From the NCBI GenBank assembly GCA_023433205.1, contig JAEZDS010000007.1:1-54470 (forward strand): 54,470 bases of DNA, given 5' to 3'. Positions 3,126-13,069 of this stretch are shown here, in pieces. Positions within the stretch are counted from its first letter, which is position 1. Every line of letters starts with the position of its first letter. Below the pieces are notes generated by a model. The model did not search any database. It saw only the letters and a list, made by a program, of their open reading frames with translations, and was not told the DNA's origin. This DNA comes from Bacteroidota bacterium (GTDB lineage Bacteria; Bacteroidota; Bacteroidia; B-17B0; Aurantibacillaceae). A program made the translations under genes and the position numbers.

Positions 3126-4616
3126 ATGAAAAAATTACTGGTAGCGAACCGCGGAGAGATAGCGTTAAGGATTATGCGGAGCGCGAAAGAAATGGGGATC
3201 AAAACGGTGGCAGTATATTCTGAAGCCGACCGCAACGCCTTGTTTGTGAGATTTGCCGATGAGGCGGTTTGTATTGGTGAAGCGCCCAGCAATAAGTCGT
3301 ACCTGAAAGGTGATAAGATCATTGAGGTGTGTAAGGCGGTAAAGGCCGATGCCATTCACCCCGGTTATGGTTTTTTAAGTGAGAACGCCGCTTTCGCCAG
3401 AAGCGTGAAAGAGGCCGGAATTACCTTTGTTGGACCCAGCGCTGAAAGTATGGAAATGATGGGGGATAAGCTCAGCGCTAAAGCAACCGCCAAAAAAAAC
3501 GGTGTGCCAATGATCCCTGGTTCTGAAGGAGCCATCAGCGATGTCAAAGAAGCAGTAAAGGTGGCAAAGGAAACCGGATTTCCCCTGCTCATTAAGGCCA
3601 GCGCCGGCGGCGGCGGTAAAGGCATGCGGCTTGTTGAACGTGAGCAGGATGTTGAAGAACAGATGAACCTTGCCATCAGCGAAGCACGTTCTGCATTCGG
3701 AAATGGCGCTGTATTTATTGAAAAGTACGCCAGCAGACCAAGGCATATAGAGATTCAGGTGCTTGCCGATAACCACGGCAATTGTGTGTACCTTTTTGAG
3801 CGTGAATGCAGCATTCAGCGAAGGCATCAGAAACTTATTGAGGAAGCGCCGAGCAGTGTACTGAGCGAGGAACTGCGTGAACAAATGGGCCGCTGCGCGA
3901 TTGATGTGGCAAAAGCCTGCAACTACAGTGGTGCCGGAACAGTTGAGTTTCTGGTAGATGACAAGCTTAATTTCTACTTCCTTGAAATGAATACCAGACT
4001 GCAGGTTGAACATCCTGTTACCGAACTTATCACAGGTCTGGATCTGGTAAAGGAACAGATAAAAGTGGCCCGTAATGAAAAACTCTCCTTTAGCCAAAAA
4101 GATCTGAAGATCAGTGGCCATGCTATTGAAGTACGTGTTTGCGCGGAAGATCCCATGAATAATTTTCTTCCGGATATTGGCCGGCTGCTTGTATACAAAA
4201 CTCCCGCCGGACCTGGTGTGCGTGTTGACGACAGTTTCGAAGAAGGAATGGAGATCCCGATCTATTATGATCCCATGATCGCTAAACTCATAGTGCATGG
4301 CAAAGACAGGAGTGAGGCCATAGCGCGAATGATCACTGCCATTGAAAATTACCGGATCGTGGGAGTGGAAACCACCCTCGATTTCTGCAAATATGTATTA
4401 AAACATGAGGCATTTGTTTCTGGAAAATTTGATACAGGCTTTGTTAAAAACCATTTTGACCCCTCACAGCTGGCTTCCGACAGCAAGGAGTACGCCGAGG
4501 TTGCCGTCCTGGCCTCAGCACTCATTTTTGGCGGGGAAAAAGCCCTGGCAGCACACAGTGCCGCGGGGCCTGTTAAAAAAAGTAAATGGCGCGCTAATCG
4601 TCTTCAGGGTCAGTAA
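3126..4616 (+). CDS. accC: Acetyl-/propionyl-CoA carboxylase biotin carboxylase subunit
   Basis: Motifs LVANRGEIA, HPGYGFLSEN, KASAGGGGKGMR, ERECSIQRRHQK, FLEMNTRLQVEHPVTE and YYDPMIAKL. Confidence 0.95.
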   Translation: MKKLLVANRGEIALRIMRSAKEMGIKTVAVYSEADRNALFVRFADEAVCIGEAPSNKSYLKGDKIIEVCKAVKADAIHPGYGFLSENAAFARSVKEAGITFVGPSAESMEMMGDKLSAKATAKKNGVPMIPGSEGAISDVKEAVKVAKETGFPLLIKASAGGGGKGMRLVEREQDVEEQMNLAISEARSAFGNGAVFIEKYASRPRHIEIQVLADNHGNCVYLFERECSIQRRHQKLIEEAPSSVLSEELREQMGRCAIDVAKACNYSGAGTVEFLVDDKLNFYFLEMNTRLQVEHPVTELITGLDLVKEQIKVARNEKLSFSQKDLKISGHAIEVRVCAEDPMNNFLPDIGRLLVYKTPAGPGVRVDDSFEEGMEIPIYYDPMIAKLIVHGKDRSEAIARMITAIENYRIVGVETTLDFCKYVLKHEAFVSGKFDTGFVKNHFDPSQLASDSKEYAEVAVLASALIFGGEKALAAHSAAGPVKKSKWRANRLQGQ

Positions 4617-4651
4617 CTTCAGGATACCTTTTACGTATAAGATCAATCAGC

Positions 4652-5281
4652 GTGACACCCCCGAAAATACTCAGAACTTTAATAGCCCTTGTGTGCTTAA
4701 TGGCGGGCATTTCTTTCCCCTTGGCAGCCCAGGATCATGAGAGTATTGCTGCTCCTCCTGTTGAAGGCCAGCTTGCGCATGCACGTATCAATTCACGCGG
4801 CGACACCATTCCCTACGTAAACCTGCAGGCTGTCGACATCAATACACAGTTCGAGTTCAAGACGCGGAAGCAGCAGGAAATGTGGACCCGCACCAGACAC
4901 AATGTAAAAGTTGTTTATCCGTATGCGATTCTGGCCGCTGCAAAACTCAAGGAGTACGATAAACAGCTTGCTCTTATTGAGGATGAAAAGCTGAAGAAAA
5001 AGTTCATCAAGGATTGCGAACGCGACCTTCGCAGCGAATTTGAGGATGAACTGAGTAATCTTACTGTATCTCAGGGAAAGATTCTGATGAAGCTGATCGA
5101 CAGGGAGAGCGGAAAAACCACATACGAAGTAGTAAAACAGCTGCGTGGTGCTTTTCAGGCTGCCATGTGGCAAACAGTGGCGCGGGTATTCGGTCATAAC
5201 CTGAAATCCGAATACGATGCCAGTGTGGAGGACATCATGATTGAACGGGCTGTGAAGCTTGTGGAATCAGGTCGTTTTTAA
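4652..5281 (+). CDS. DUF4294 family exported protein
   Basis: Signal peptide; NVKVVYPYA and LTVSQGKILMKLIDRE...WQ..AR.FG.NLK..YD motifs; GTG start. Confidence 0.8.
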   Translation: MTPPKILRTLIALVCLMAGISFPLAAQDHESIAAPPVEGQLAHARINSRGDTIPYVNLQAVDINTQFEFKTRKQQEMWTRTRHNVKVVYPYAILAAAKLKEYDKQLALIEDEKLKKKFIKDCERDLRSEFEDELSNLTVSQGKILMKLIDRESGKTTYEVVKQLRGAFQAAMWQTVARVFGHNLKSEYDASVEDIMIERAVKLVESGRF

Positions 5282-5310
5282 TTGTTTTCCAGATTGTTTA
5301 TTTTCGCCGT

Positions 5311-5970
5311 ATGCGAAGTTTACTCATTTTATTGATGGCGCTATTGCAGCTTGTTGCTGCAGCACAAACAAAAAGACCGGTAAAAAAGCCGGTTCCCGGC
5401 ACAGCCACAGACAGTGTCGCAAATAAGGCACTTATTGACAGGAACGATACGCTTGACCCCAGAGACGTGCAGGTGAAGGCCGGCAGAGAATTCGCCGTTT
5501 ACAATAAAAGAGAAAGAGGTGTTGACAAACGTCTGAAACTCTGTTTTCAGCTTACGGGAGATACTGTATTCAACTTTTGTTTTAATGACTCGACTGTGCG
5601 TGACCCAGAATATTATGATGAGATCTTCAGAAAAAAGGATGGTGATACCACATACGTGTTGTTGTTTATTGATGCATTCACCAAAGCAACAGAAAAATTA
5701 TGTGATGGCGGCAAAGAGACAAGACTGCTTTTTATTGAGTGGAATACAAAGAAAAACACTGCTCAGATCCGGCAGCGGACTATTTCTTCCTGTATAAAAG
5801 CCATTTCAAACATGACAAAGATGGATATCCGGGAATGGGATAAAAAAAGTCCTTTGGTGGTGAGTTATCACAGGGGAGGGCAGAAATTTATTGATGCCAG
5901 ATTTGATCCATCTGACTACAAAAAAGGGATGCAAACCATCTCCAGCGACGACCAGGAAGAAGAACAATAA
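5311..5970 (+). CDS. Hypothetical exported protein
   Basis: 219-aa ORF with a signal peptide ending AAA-Q. Fills the gap between the DUF4294 gene and lpxK. No family recognised. Confidence 0.75.
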   Translation: MRSLLILLMALLQLVAAAQTKRPVKKPVPGTATDSVANKALIDRNDTLDPRDVQVKAGREFAVYNKRERGVDKRLKLCFQLTGDTVFNFCFNDSTVRDPEYYDEIFRKKDGDTTYVLLFIDAFTKATEKLCDGGKETRLLFIEWNTKKNTAQIRQRTISSCIKAISNMTKMDIREWDKKSPLVVSYHRGGQKFIDARFDPSDYKKGMQTISSDDQEEEQ

Positions 5971-6008
5971 TTTTGAGGCTTTAAAAAAAAGCGGCATATT
6001 TAACCTGA

Positions 6009-7097
6009 ATGAACCAGGGGTTAAAAATGTTGCTGATGCCATTCGGAGTGGCCTATGGTACAATTACCATGTTGCGCAACCGCCTCTACGATCTGCGCTT
6101 ACTTCGCGAAAAAAAATTTGAGATCCATACCATTGGCGTGGGAAATCTTGCGGTAGGCGGGGCGGGCAAAACGCCTCTTATTGAGTACCTCATCAGGTTG
6201 TTAGTAAAAGAAGGTGTTGCTGCCGCCACATTAAGCAGGGGTTATAAACGTAAAACATCGGGTTTTGTGCTGGCCAACGATGCCAGCGTAGCGGCGGATA
6301 TAGGCGATGAGCCGCTTCTCTACAAAACCAAGTACAATGTTACGGTGGCCGTTGATGCCAACCGCGTAAACGGGATCAGAAATATTATCCGCATCTGCGG
6401 ACAAAAAGCTCCGGTTATATTGCTTGATGATGTTTTCCAGCACCGTGCTGTAAGAGCGGGACTCAACATTCTTGTGACCGAATATGGCAACCCCTATTAC
6501 AATGACGTAATGATGCCTGCCGGTACCCTCCGCGAGTTCAGCAGCGGCGTAAAAAGAGCTGATGTGATTGTGGTTACTAAAACGCCTGACAGAACTACTG
6601 CGGTTGAGATGCGGACCGTGATCAAAGACCTGAAACCGCAGGCGCATCAGAAAGTATTTTTTTCGTTTTTGAAGTACGGAGAACTTTACAGCATCAATAA
6701 TGAACAGATAAAACTTGATACGCTCAATGATCTTTTCCGTTACCGGGTGATCGTGTTTTCGGGAATCGCCAACCCTGCTCCCATGGTGAATTATTTGAAG
6801 GAGTACGCCGCCGACTTAAAACATCTGCCCTTTGCCGATCATTACCAGTATGAGCCGAAAGATCTGAAGGTAATTGAAAAATACTATCACTCATTCGAAG
6901 GAGGCAACAAAATTCTTGTTACTACCGAAAAGGATCTCATGCGATTAAAGATGCCCGATCTGTGGCCAATAGCGCGATTAATGAACATTTATATTTTGCC
7001 GGTGGAAGTGTCTTTCAGAGACAAGGAAGAAGAGTTTAATGAACTGGTGATGCATTATGTTCACAGCAGGCGGATCTATCATGAGAAGTATTCTTAG
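6009..7097 (+). CDS. lpxK: Tetraacyldisaccharide 4'-kinase
   Basis: Motifs VGNLAVGGAGKTP, LSRGYKR, GDEP, LDDVFQH, P.GTLRE, FSGIANP, F.DHY and TTEKD. Confidence 0.95.
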   Translation: MNQGLKMLLMPFGVAYGTITMLRNRLYDLRLLREKKFEIHTIGVGNLAVGGAGKTPLIEYLIRLLVKEGVAAATLSRGYKRKTSGFVLANDASVAADIGDEPLLYKTKYNVTVAVDANRVNGIRNIIRICGQKAPVILLDDVFQHRAVRAGLNILVTEYGNPYYNDVMMPAGTLREFSSGVKRADVIVVTKTPDRTTAVEMRTVIKDLKPQAHQKVFFSFLKYGELYSINNEQIKLDTLNDLFRYRVIVFSGIANPAPMVNYLKEYAADLKHLPFADHYQYEPKDLKVIEKYYHSFEGGNKILVTTEKDLMRLKMPDLWPIARLMNIYILPVEVSFRDKEEEFNELVMHYVHSRRIYHEKYS

Positions 7098-10252: not shown

Positions 10253-11227
10253 TCAAATTCCCCGCAAAAGGTCATAGAGGCCATACCAGGCTGGTTTTGG
10301 CAGATAGTTTTCGTCAAAAAGAAGGGGAAAATCAACGCGGTTCAGATCCAGCGCCAGCCAGGAGTCAGCATCGCCCACACCCCAGAAGGTTATGCCGAAC
10401 CTTTGGGGGGGCGGTACGTGCAGATACGCTTCCACAAGAAACTGAAGTATTTTGGCCTGCTTCATAAAAAGCTCTTCTTTTCCCGAGACTTCTCCCTCGA
10501 AAGGGATCACCGATATGTCGAGTTCGGAGATGTGCACCAGATACCCTTCGCGTGAAATGTCCTCAAATACTTCAGCGAATTCTGCGGGTCTTGCACTGCT
10601 GATGTTCAGGTGCATCTGAAGGCCTATTCCATCAACCTTTATGCCCTGGTTTCTGAGATCGTTCAGGTAATTTAGTACAGCTTTTCTTTTCACCGGATTG
10701 GTTTCCAGGTCGAAATCGTTGTAAAATAAAAGAGCGGCGGGATCTGCTGCAGCGGCACAGGCAAAGGCCTGCCTGATGTAGTCGGGGCCCGCTACCCTGA
10801 ACCACGCACCCTGTTTAACAGCCCCCTCTTCAGTAAAAGCCTCGTTAACCACGTCCCAGCTCCCAATCTTTGACCTGTAACGCTGAACAAGGTTTGAAAT
10901 ATGGCTGCAAAGCAGTGCCTGCTGATTACTCTTTTGCAACATCCACTCCGGCAGCTCATGGTCCCAGATCAATGTATGACCATGGATCTTTTTTTTATGT
11001 TGTAATGCCAAATCCACAAAACCATCTGATTCAGTCCAGCTAAATACCCCTTCCTGGGGCTGTATAAAAGATGCTTTCAGACTTTTCTCGGGAGTAAAAC
11101 AACTGAATTGCTCTACTGCACGGCTGCGGTACACTGTGTTGTTCTGTATGTTGGGAAATTTTATAACAGTGCCTATGGGGAAAGGACTGATATCGCAAAG
11201 TTTGCCGGAAGGTTCTGGGGCCGGCAT
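10253..11227 (-). CDS. Glycoside hydrolase family 10 (endo-1,4-beta-xylanase-like)
   Basis: TPEKSLK, HGHTLIW, WDVVNEA (acid/base Glu), YNDF, GIGLQMH, ISELDI (nucleophile Glu), FWGVGDADSW and PLLFD...PKPA. Confidence 0.9.
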   Translation of the reverse strand: MPAPEPSGKLCDISPFPIGTVIKFPNIQNNTVYRSRAVEQFSCFTPEKSLKASFIQPQEGVFSWTESDGFVDLALQHKKKIHGHTLIWDHELPEWMLQKSNQQALLCSHISNLVQRYRSKIGSWDVVNEAFTEEGAVKQGAWFRVAGPDYIRQAFACAAAADPAALLFYNDFDLETNPVKRKAVLNYLNDLRNQGIKVDGIGLQMHLNISSARPAEFAEVFEDISREGYLVHISELDISVIPFEGEVSGKEELFMKQAKILQFLVEAYLHVPPPQRFGITFWGVGDADSWLALDLNRVDFPLLFDENYLPKPAWYGLYDLLRGI

Positions 11228-11229
11228 TG

Positions 11230-11940
11230 TCAGATGTCCGGCTGCTGCTGTCTGATGCCCTCCTCAGCGAGGGTATAGTAGGCTGTTCTTACCATTTTTC
11301 GGGCGGCGATGTATTGCCGGTATGGTTCAGAGTTGTTTTTCCTGGCATTTATCACATGATCATACTCGCCGCCAAGTGCAATAAGCAGTTCTGTGGCCTC
11401 ACGCAGGGCAAATTTTCCTCCGTGGGAAGCGGTAAGGTAATCAACCAGTTTATGCCTGGTACAATAGTCTGCAAACAGGGGATTGCTCTGCTGGTTTATC
11501 TGCACCCGCAGTCCGCACTTTTCTGCAATGGGGATGTCGAGCACGTCGTCAAAAAAATAGCATACCTGCGAGGGATCAATTTTTTCCTGCTCGCAGAGGA
11601 AGTTCAGGGCGTGGATCTTATGCGCCACCTTATAAAAAGAATAGTTAAAATTTTCGCGTTCGCTGTAATAAAAAGCGGTTTTATTGGTTTCGCCGCTTAT
11701 GGCAAGTGTCAGAGGCAATTCGCCATGAACCCTGAAGTAGGAAAATCTTAAAAGATTAACCCCCATGCTGTCAACTTCGCTGAAATTACTGCCGCCGGAA
11801 GAACTTTTATAACCACCGTTGAATACACCGTCCCAGTCGAACACAAAAGCTTTTACCCCCCTGAGCCTTCTGGTGATTTCAGCCGGAGAACTGATAAAAC
11901 GCCCTCCGAGACTGGTGTATAATTTAACGATCTCGTCCAA
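11230..11940 (-). CDS. KdsC/YrbI-like HAD-superfamily phosphatase
   Basis: FDWDGVF (motif I); D.MGV, FDDVLD and GG..ALRE segments parallel those of Kdo-8-phosphate phosphatases. Confidence 0.8.
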   Translation of the reverse strand: MDEIVKLYTSLGGRFISSPAEITRRLRGVKAFVFDWDGVFNGGYKSSSGGSNFSEVDSMGVNLLRFSYFRVHGELPLTLAISGETNKTAFYYSERENFNYSFYKVAHKIHALNFLCEQEKIDPSQVCYFFDDVLDIPIAEKCGLRVQINQQSNPLFADYCTRHKLVDYLTASHGGKFALREATELLIALGGEYDHVINARKNNSEPYRQYIAARKMVRTAYYTLAEEGIRQQQPDI

Positions 11941-11952
11941 TGGTTGTATTTA

Positions 11953-12963
11953 TCAGGGTTTAAGATCCTGAATATCGAGCATTCCAAGAGGTTTGCCGTT
12001 TTCAGTCACTACAATAGTATCTACCAGTGTTTTTTTGAAAAGCGCATTGGCTTCATTAAGCAGGTGTGAACTTTCTATGCTGATTGGTTCACGGTATTCG
12101 AGCTGGCTGAGTTTTTTGCTGAGAACATCACGTCCGCCGTCCATCAACAATTTACGAAGAGAACCATCGGTGAAAACACCTTTTATTGATCCATCTTTTT
12201 TAACTACAGTGATAGCACCGAAATTATATTCAGTCATTTTTACCAGAGCATCGCTAATGGTAGTGTCCTCGTTCACTATTGGATTAACGCCGTTAATGGC
12301 GTCTTTCACTCGAACCATCATAAGGCGCGTATCCATTATGAACTGATCGGTTCCGAGTGTGGTAAAATTGTTTTCGGTAAGCTGTTTAAGCACTTTCAGG
12401 GGCACCGTAATTGTGTGAACCCCGATATTGATTGCATTGCGTACATGTTCTGCATGGCGCACCGAGCTGAACATGATCCTGGTATCATAACCGTAATTTT
12501 TTACCGCGTTTACACATTGTTCTACCAGCGCCAGGGCATCATGACCCTGGTCCTGCAGGCGGCCTACAAGCGGGCATACGTATGATGCGCCGGCCTGCAT
12601 GGCCATATATGCCTGCTGGAGCGTGTAAACAAGGTGCACATTTACCAGGTAGCCTTTGTTTCGCAGCATTTTACAGGCTTTCACCCCTTCGAGTGAAACG
12701 GGGATCTTAAAAACGGTCTTATTCTTGTCAAGTCCCAGAGCAAGCTGTCGTTCCGCTTCGGCCAGCACCTCTTCGGCTGTGTTTCCCAGTGCCTCAATCT
12801 GCAGAACAGGAACTATCTTGCTGAGTTTAACGATGGTTCCGTCGATATCGGTGATGCCTTCCTTCTGCATGAAGGTGGGCGTGGTGGTTAAGCCATTTAA
12901 AAAACCCAGCCTGAATCCTTCTTCGATCTCTTTCAGGTTGGCTGAATCCAAATATAATTCCAT
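11953..12963 (-). CDS. TalC/FSA-family transaldolase fused to a C-terminal CBS-domain pair
   Basis: LYLDSAN, GLTTTPT, FKIP (Schiff-base Lys), YV.PLVGR and S.RH. C-terminal ~120 aa carry GVFTDGSLRK and GMLDIQDL, typical of CBS pairs. Confidence 0.88.
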   Translation of the reverse strand: MELYLDSANLKEIEEGFRLGFLNGLTTTPTFMQKEGITDIDGTIVKLSKIVPVLQIEALGNTAEEVLAEAERQLALGLDKNKTVFKIPVSLEGVKACKMLRNKGYLVNVHLVYTLQQAYMAMQAGASYVCPLVGRLQDQGHDALALVEQCVNAVKNYGYDTRIMFSSVRHAEHVRNAINIGVHTITVPLKVLKQLTENNFTTLGTDQFIMDTRLMMVRVKDAINGVNPIVNEDTTISDALVKMTEYNFGAITVVKKDGSIKGVFTDGSLRKLLMDGGRDVLSKKLSQLEYREPISIESSHLLNEANALFKKTLVDTIVVTENGKPLGMLDIQDLKP

Positions 12964-13032: not shown

Positions 13033-13068
13033 AAAAAAGAAGAGGCCGTCTCGTTTGGGACGGCCTCT
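13033..13068 (-). terminator. Intrinsic terminator
   Basis: 10-bp stem AGAGGCCGTC/GACGGCCTCT followed by TCTTTTTT on the minus strand. Confidence 0.8.
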
Positions 13069-13069
13069 C

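Follow-up and report, generated by a model that had tools for sequence, protein, structure and literature searches.

A transaldolase-type barrel fused to a KdsD-type CBS pair probably takes the place of arabinose-5-phosphate isomerase in Kdo biosynthesis

The window is a stretch of 54,470 nt from a Bacteroidota bacterium of the family Aurantibacillaceae (GenBank assembly GCA_023433205.1, contig JAEZDS010000007.1, positions 1 to 54,470). On its reverse strand, the open reading frame (ORF) 11953-12963 (-) encodes a 336-aa protein in which a barrel of the transaldolase (TAL)/fructose-6-phosphate aldolase (FSA) type is fused to two CBS domains. A gene for a phosphatase of the haloacid dehalogenase (HAD) type follows it. 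Nearly all lipopolysaccharide-producing bacteria synthesise Kdo (3-deoxy-D-manno-octulosonate), by a pathway in which KdsD, KdsA and KdsC are textbook steps and candidate drug targets. Our analysis indicates that the fusion probably supplies arabinose-5-phosphate (Ara5P) in place of KdsD and that the two genes form a module which replaces kdsD and kdsC in this pathway. The replacement probably feeds the Kdo pathway by an undescribed route. A literature search found no published description of a transaldolase-CBS fusion. The two genes are laid out as follows.

12328..12963 (-): TalC/FSA-type (beta/alpha)8 barrel, fusion residues 1-212 (PF00923, PDB matches, AlphaFold2 (AF2)/Foldseek)
11956..12327 (-): KdsD-type CBS pair, fusion residues 213-336 (TIGR00393, 4o9k, motif scan, tree)
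11953..11955 (-): stop codon TGA of the fusion gene
11941..11952 (-): spacer of 12 nt between the fusion gene and the phosphatase gene
11230..11940 (-): divergent KdsC/YrbI-like HAD phosphatase, 236 aa, TTG start (NCBIfam, PDB profile, AF2/Foldseek)

The preliminary description of this locus had read the fusion as a TalC/FSA-type barrel with two CBS domains, and this reading is borne out. In Pfam, TAL_FSA (PF00923) matches residues 3-201 with an E-value of 3.1e-37, and the two CBS domains (PF00571) are found with 1.5e-14. Among solved structures, the barrel matches 1vpx (6e-38) and 3s0c (3.5e-32) by sequence. The AF2 model of the fusion, built from a 32-row alignment, has a predicted local distance difference test (pLDDT) value of 94.1. 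Foldseek places its barrel on the same two structures with a root-mean-square deviation (rmsd) of 1.4 Å, TMt of 0.92-0.94 and 33-35% identity. With its (beta/alpha)8 barrel, a strand-4 Lys for the Schiff base, and Asp6 and Glu57 as catalytic partners, the fusion belongs to the transaldolase/FSA superfamily. It falls outside the TalC/FSA equivalog, both by its score to the nearest NCBIfam model (fsa_talC_mipB, TIGR00875, 166.2 bits, below the cut-off of 245.95) and by replacement of the set Thr110, Ser(Ala)130 and Phe(Tyr)132.

The residue numbering is nearly the same as that of T. acidophilum transaldolase (TacTal) in the alignment to solved structures. K86, E57 and D6 align with TacTal K86, E60 and D6; the Schiff-base Lys and the transaldolase-type Glu had already been described as apparently kept, and D6 is kept as well. 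N108, the phosphate-binding R135, S167 and R169 are also retained. Relative to TacTal, N28 is replaced by Thr, T110 by His, S130 by Cys, F132 (Tyr in FSA) by Leu and Ala166 by Ser. T28, H110 and L132 are as first noted, and C130 for Ser is an addition. We take N28, T110, S130 and F132 of TacTal/TalB to have active-site roles. Position 28 varies within the fusion family (Asn or Thr), and the family signature is H110, C130, L132 and S166. In a comparison of 36 fusion-type with 20 TalC-type sequences, in which 2-3 rows of the TalC set proved to bear the fusion signature, five columns are fixed differently (fusion/TalC-type: 31 F/L, 110 H/T, 130 C/S, 132 L/F, 166 S/A). D6, E57, K86, H110, C130, L132, R135, S167 and R169 are invariant at 80/80 close loci, which are those of the window's family (L015-L094). 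The same nine residues are invariant at 77/77 more distant fusion loci, with 66-85% identity. The window genome carries a second TalC on contig C97, with the canonical T/S/F at 110/130/132.

Two further kinds of barrel protein came up in these searches. A stand-alone barrel form was considered from signature-bearing representatives of 211-221 aa. These are maybe fragments; an alignment search gave three loci, all full-length fusions, and the single 221-aa representative P0155 as query gave no related locus. P0125, P0127, P0135 and P0149 are full-length TAL-like proteins with CBS domains (334-339 aa, 30-42% identical to the window fusion). In these, and in the type at L198:5001-5999, the Schiff-base Lys and D6 are absent, and such proteins may be pseudoenzymes or carry out different chemistry. 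L198 is the sole close relative of the Lys-less form found, a weak sample of one, and neither kdsA nor the phosphatase nor kdsB is next to it.

The arabinose-5-phosphate isomerase KdsD/KpsF/GutQ consists of an SIS domain and two CBS domains (PMC10448790). The fusion carries a C-terminal CBS pair of this KdsD type. The best NCBIfam matches of this part are KpsF/GutQ TIGR00393 (model positions 151-267, 7.9e-16) and KdsD NF008141 (2e-14), and the next CBS-bearing family, PrdR, follows at 1.2e-8. The PDB gives a single CBS match at E <= 1e-8, to 4o9k (4.4e-14 over residues 218-334), whose 130-aa chain bears the name 'Arabinose 5-phosphate isomerase'. The SIS domain is absent from the fusion, with the TIGR00393 match limited to positions 151-267 and no Pfam match to PF01380. 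The segment GVFTDGSLRK, which had been likened to the KdsD/GutQ motif, lies at residues 262-271, and the consensus of the fusion family is GIFTDGDLRR. Scanning our collection with a pattern derived from GIFTDGDLRR returned 80 loci: 16 full-length fusions, one KdsD beside a TalC, and 63 KdsD-like loci. A KdsD-like ORF is present in all 63, near full length in 53. One apparent barrel next to KdsD, at L114, proved to be a canonical TalC (T/S/F) with an ordinary KdsD as its neighbour and is irrelevant here.

In a quick maximum-likelihood tree (IQ-TREE; 130 columns, four long-branched outgroups, many open forks), 32 fusion and 54 KdsD CBS pairs split from the four other CBS pairs of the window genome with SH-aLRT 87, and the fusion rows are interleaved among the KdsD rows. 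The grouping of the CBS pair with KdsD, proposed at the outset, is thus recovered in a quick tree with a small outgroup, and the rankings of hidden Markov models and PDB chains agree with it. Most simply, the CBS pair of the fusion is a retained regulatory module. The barrel would functionally replace the SIS domain.

A third partner of a KdsD-like CBS pair was seen at L197 (G198:C6:161000-171000; ORFs 4334-5338, 5335-6333 and 6335-6802, all (+)). Here a 334-aa protein combines a Ribul_P_3_epim barrel (PF00834, 1.9e-22) with CBS. Its gene is followed by that of a DAHP_synth_1/KdsA-like synthase (233 bits in Pfam, 121 bits to the Kdo-8-phosphate synthase (KDO8PS) model) and then by that of a 155-aa HAD phosphatase. 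In this genome, neither KdsA nor KdsD was found at the thresholds used.

The fusion gene had been reported to end 12 nt before a KdsC-like phosphatase gene, and the stop codon, the 12-nt spacer and a TTG start are found in this order. The ORF 11230-11940 has no Pfam match. Its NCBIfam matches to KdsC models are below cut-off (NF007019, 1.7e-12, 47.4 bits versus 208; TIGR01670, 3e-8, 33.8 versus 106.95), which leaves it outside KdsC/YrbI by curated score, and a weak match to KDN-9-P phosphatase is also seen. The DxD, Ser/Thr, Lys and DD motifs of the C0 HAD fold are all present, and D35-W-D37-G, K108 and D131-D132-x-x-D135 are invariant across 19 orthologues. Among 23 PDB profile matches (E <= 0.001), the best of which is 4um5 (4.6e-17), all enzyme-named chains are KdsC/YrbI or KDN-9-P phosphatase entries; the remaining ones are unnamed HAD/hypothetical proteins and weak matches to designed TIM barrels. 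The AF2 model has a pLDDT of 93 and superposes on KdsC/YrbI structures with TMt of 0.77-0.85 at 18-26% identity. The Foldseek matches, among those listed, are KdsC/YrbI, KDN-9-P phosphatase and a few unnamed HAD/hypothetical chains. About 25 N-terminal and about 40 C-terminal residues extend beyond the matches to solved KdsC chains (162-211 aa).

The arrangement of the two genes is conserved in relatives. The phosphatase lies downstream of the fusion on the same strand at 67/80 close loci, at a distance of less than 200 nt in 62, 304 nt in 1 and 0.6-2.1 kb in 4. It is missing at 13, two of which are cut just past the fusion. Identity across these loci is 84-90% for the fusion and 39-65% for the phosphatase, and kdsB is present at 8/80. 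Beyond the window's family, the genes mostly run kdsA, fusion, phosphatase, kdsB, and L095 has all four. Immediately upstream of the fusion, kdsA is found at 13 of 16 diverse loci. In another set of 77 loci, 64 have a same-strand kdsA upstream of the fusion (40 within 200 nt, 24 at 0.24-3.6 kb), 65 have the phosphatase no more than 300 nt downstream, and 48 have kdsB. The adjacency of fusion and phosphatase, first noticed in the window, therefore holds at close and more distant loci alike. Furthermore, kdsA is directly upstream in 3/3 loci from two Pelagibacteraceae-labelled single-cell genomes and one Saccharibacteria-labelled metagenome-assembled genome (MAG), and Kdo transferase genes flank both sides of the fusion locus in one Gammaproteobacteria-labelled MAG.

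At three of these loci, which were scanned for it, a gene pair for a DegT-family aminotransferase and an iron-type alcohol dehydrogenase (Fe-ADH) lies near kdsA and the fusion (L095:9109-11419 (-), L108:1747-4074 (+), L115:6159-8573 (+)). It resembles the KdnA/KdnB pair of 8-amino-Kdo (Kdo8N) synthesis, in which KdnA is the other member. KdnB, an Fe-ADH, initiates Kdo8N synthesis in Shewanella (PMC5125639). Together with altered active-site residues in the KdsA of the module, the pair at L095, L108 and L115 could point to a fusion whose substrate is not that of KdsA but a modified or eight-carbon sugar from a variant pathway, as in Kdo8N-type clusters. We regard this as highly improbable. The window's family and many other loci are without the pair and are still KdsD-free, and the step missing in all these genomes is the KdsD step.

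The distribution of the fusion is complementary to that of KdsD. The window genome, 91% complete in 267 contigs, holds KdsA (333 bits), KdsB (226 bits) and a Kdo transferase. We found in it no match to TIGR00393 (KpsF/KdsD) beyond CBS parts and no canonical KdsC, the only KdsC-like protein being the divergent phosphatase of the window. Its SIS proteins are GlmS, GmhA (in the gmhA cluster) and PGI/PMI. In a sample of its order (121 genomes from ten genera of one family, each 90% complete or better), 119 carry the fusion and one has KdsD; completeness is 92-93% for the two genomes in which no fusion was matched. In a phylum sample of 301 genomes, where the overlap of KdsA and KdsD was compared by hand from lists, KdsA is present in 221, KdsD in 216 and the fusion in 4. 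The divergent phosphatase occurs in exactly the same four genomes as the full-length fusion (G000, G194, G266 and G124). All four have KdsA and lack both KdsD and canonical KdsC. G182, of the genus of G194 and G266, has KdsD and canonical KdsC without the fusion.

KdsD is over the cut-off in none of five further fusion genomes from other lineages. Among these are MAGs labelled Gammaproteobacteria, of which one is a single chromosome of 4.7 Mb, and the cultured isolate Plebeiibacterium marinum D04 (L115). Chitinophagaceae bacterium LGM1 (L210) is another cultured holder of the fusion. Whether a full kdsD is retained with the fusion had been raised as a check. KdsD was found in 1/121 genomes of the order sample, 0/3 holders outside the family and 0/5 further genomes. 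A protein search gave 3928 matches at E <= 0.001, and the best 120 all combine TAL_FSA with CBS.

The KdsA-negative part of the phylum sample comprises 80/301 genomes (KDO8PS, E <= 1e-60), 77 of which are also KdsD-negative. The TAL match is canonical in 13 of the KdsA-negative genomes checked for it, and 5 checked have DAHPS-like matches only or none. Near-complete KdsA-negative genomes were found in families f28 (KdsA in 0/49), f18, f23, f26, f27 and f30, which suggests that entire lineages of the phylum do without Kdo.

The phyletic distribution and the operon slot together indicate that the fusion probably does KdsD's job. The same data bear on the view that it is a nucleotide-regulated transaldolase/FSA that belongs to the pentose-phosphate network and only happens to accompany Kdo genes, Ara5P then coming from an unrecognised isomerase such as a PGI/PMI-type or GmhA-type SIS protein. 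This view can draw on four KdsA-positive genomes that have neither KdsD nor fusion and share the SIS set of the fusion holders, and on the barrel itself, which is 34-35% identical to TalC enzymes with an rmsd of 1.4 Å. It is nevertheless quite unlikely. A separate canonical TalC is present in the fusion genomes checked (G000, G124), and none of the TAL-defining residues T110, S130 and F132 is left. The fusion co-occurs with KdsD absence, a matching phosphatase and a KdsA clade (with the exception of G389), and it fills the operon slot between kdsA and the phosphatase. The ordinary, nucleotide-regulated transaldolase that the preliminary description had kept as an option thus loses ground, because of the separate canonical TalC in the genome and the Kdo operon setting elsewhere.

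KdsA varies together with the fusion. KdsA proteins of 40 fusion contexts and of 20 KdsD-type Bacteroidota lie on two sides of one branch (SH-aLRT 99), and the unlinked KdsA copy of the window genome falls on the fusion-context side. The KdsA of G194 shares 45% identity with its counterpart in the same-genus genome G182 and 70-73% with the fusion-linked KdsA of Gammaproteobacteria-labelled MAGs. The KdsA genes of the fusion-linked clade are the following.

G000:C94:2394-3161, and genes in L095, L101-L115 and L199-L278: KdsA of the fusion-linked clade

Nine KdsA columns are fixed differently between fusion-context and KdsD-type proteins. Compared with A. aeolicus KDO8PS (1fwn), the fusion-context KdsA has KDNRS for KANRS, Met for R106, His for K124 and an Arg for a Gln. 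R106 of the A. aeolicus enzyme presumably binds the phosphate of Ara5P; the R106G entries in the structure match list show only that this site has been studied. The split may be in part plain phylogeny, since the comparison group is Bacteroidota only. The complementarity at order and phylum level, the co-occurrence of the phosphatase, the KdsA clade and the residue statistics all come from the present analysis.

We propose the following mechanism for the module that would stand in for kdsD and kdsC in Kdo synthesis. The 336-aa fusion would supply KDO8PS with its aldose-phosphate substrate, Ara5P, by means of a re-tooled transaldolase/FSA barrel used in place of the SIS isomerase domain. The C-terminal CBS pair of KdsD would be kept, presumably as the ligand-sensing regulatory part of the pathway, and the downstream HAD enzyme would be the Kdo-8-phosphate phosphatase of the module. 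The reaction would most likely be a class-I aldol addition, through a Schiff base at Lys86, of a glycolaldehyde unit to D-glyceraldehyde-3-phosphate (GA3P). H110, C130 and L132 may reshape the donor pocket and provide acid-base function. Ara5P bound via C1 would span the same distance to the phosphate as fructose-6-phosphate (F6P) bound via C2. Aldol chemistry on an aldose donor fits the barrel, because Lys, Glu, Asp and the phosphate site are retained and the changes are confined to the donor side. C130 presumably corresponds to residue 129 of FSA. That residue tunes the affinity of FSA for F6P (PMC7767278). With glycolaldehyde and GA3P as substrates in vitro, the sole product of E. coli FsaA is Ara5P (PMC9947464).

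In view of the invariant His and Cys, isomerase or epimerase chemistry is also conceivable. The barrel would then substitute for KdsD in the same way, either as an isomerase (ribulose-5-phosphate to Ara5P) or as a 2-epimerase (ribose-5-phosphate to Ara5P). E57, H110, C130 and K86 would serve as proton shuttles or as an aldimine catalyst, and glycolaldehyde would not be needed. Glu/His/Lys and Cys residues serve in other sugar-phosphate isomerases, and FSA makes Ara5P without needing the H110 and C130 that the fusion family has gained, invariantly, at its catalytic centre. In addition, pentose phosphates are abundant, the operons show no glycolaldehyde source, and the phyletic and operon data apply to it just as they do to the aldolase. 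We still consider this chemistry unlikely. D6, E57, K86 and the F6P-type phosphate site are all invariant, and a changed donor rather than a changed reaction type is expected, because the aldol machinery is kept and only five positions differ from TalC. We know of no TAL-family member that catalyses isomerisation, which also counts against it, as does the location of L198, the one close relative found of the Lys-less form, outside a Kdo context.

Several points weigh against a replacement of KdsD by an aldolase as proposed here. To our knowledge, free glycolaldehyde is not an abundant metabolite, and no glycolaldehyde-forming gene is conserved beside the fusion in the operons examined. The invariant His110 may mean different chemistry, since FSA makes Ara5P with Thr at this position. 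The altered active site of KdsA, read from the alignment, might mean that the intermediate is not exactly Ara5P. In the window's own family, kdsA is adjacent to the fusion at 0/80 loci. G389 (family f1; 93% complete, 2% contamination) has the fusion, the phosphatase, KdsD and canonical KdsC, with both sets at C87:34412-35191, C77:1280-1723 and C214; contamination or recent transfer may account for this double set. In the phylum sample, eight genomes are KdsA-positive and KdsD-negative, and four of them have the fusion. The other four (G078, G150 and G282 of family f9, G076 of f34) are complete genomes with a canonical KdsA, only a canonical TalC and no additional SIS protein. Since half of these eight genomes do without the fusion, another, unrecognised Ara5P source exists, and such a source could also serve the fusion holders.

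A wider reading can be offered tentatively, at slightly less than even odds in our judgement. A dedicated transaldolase-barrel Ara5P former, either a C2-donor aldolase or a new isomerase/epimerase, would replace KdsD within a complete, horizontally mobile Kdo module. Such an alternative module would combine a separate KdsA clade, remodelled at the phosphate site, with a KdsC-like phosphatase specific to it and frequently kdsB. It would range over many Bacteroidota and over MAGs or single-cell genomes that carry the labels Gammaproteobacteria, Desulfobacterales and Pelagibacteraceae. It may depart from the textbook route in its intermediates or in how these are regulated.

Two other features flank the gene pair in the window.

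13040..13069 (-): terminator-like hairpin with an 11-pair stem and a trailing T run, some 75 nt before the fusion start (consensus scan)
10253..11227 (-): GH10 xylanase gene, starting 2 nt past the phosphatase stop

The hairpin would mark the end of the preceding transcription unit; it was located by a consensus-only scan that found 5 such sites against 3.7 expected in shuffles. The xylanase gene may be co-transcribed with the phosphatase in the window genome, and it was found at 0/80 related loci.

If the fusion does replace KdsD, the essential Kdo pathway would acquire a novel enzyme activity, and perhaps a novel metabolic input as well, with its first step swapped for an unrelated catalytic domain across many lineages. 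Many genes that now go by 'transaldolase' or 'CBS domain-containing protein' would have their annotation corrected, as would metabolic reconstructions that score such organisms as lacking Ara5P synthesis. The CBS pair of KdsD would be a portable regulatory module, with the third fusion partner seen in L197. Biocatalysis could also gain a natural Ara5P-forming aldolase, the lack of which is reported by pathway engineers (PMC9947464).

The fusion resembles two known enzyme families. With TalC-type transaldolase and FSA it shares the barrel fold, Lys86, Glu57, Asp6, Asn108 and the phosphate-binding Arg135, Ser167 and Arg169. It differs from them by the changes of Thr110 to His, Ser130 to Cys, Phe132 (Tyr in FSA) to Leu and Ala166 to Ser, by the added C-terminal CBS pair and by its location in Kdo operons. 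With KdsD/KpsF/GutQ it shares the GIFTDGDLRR-type CBS pair and a gene position upstream of a KdsC-type phosphatase, beside kdsA and kdsB. Its catalytic domain is unrelated to theirs, with the SIS domain absent and a score of 58 bits against a cut-off of 203.7, and its presumed reaction would be aldol chemistry rather than isomerisation. The divergent phosphatase shares the fold and the HAD motifs of KdsC/YrbI and of the KDN-9-P phosphatase of B. thetaiotaomicron (C0-type HAD, subfamily IIIA). It resembles KdsC further in its operon position and in the lack of another KdsC in its holders, apart from G389. In contrast to KdsC/YrbI, to which it is 18-26% identical with sub-cut-off scores, it carries extra N- and C-terminal segments and is found only alongside the fusion, in the same 4/301 genomes.

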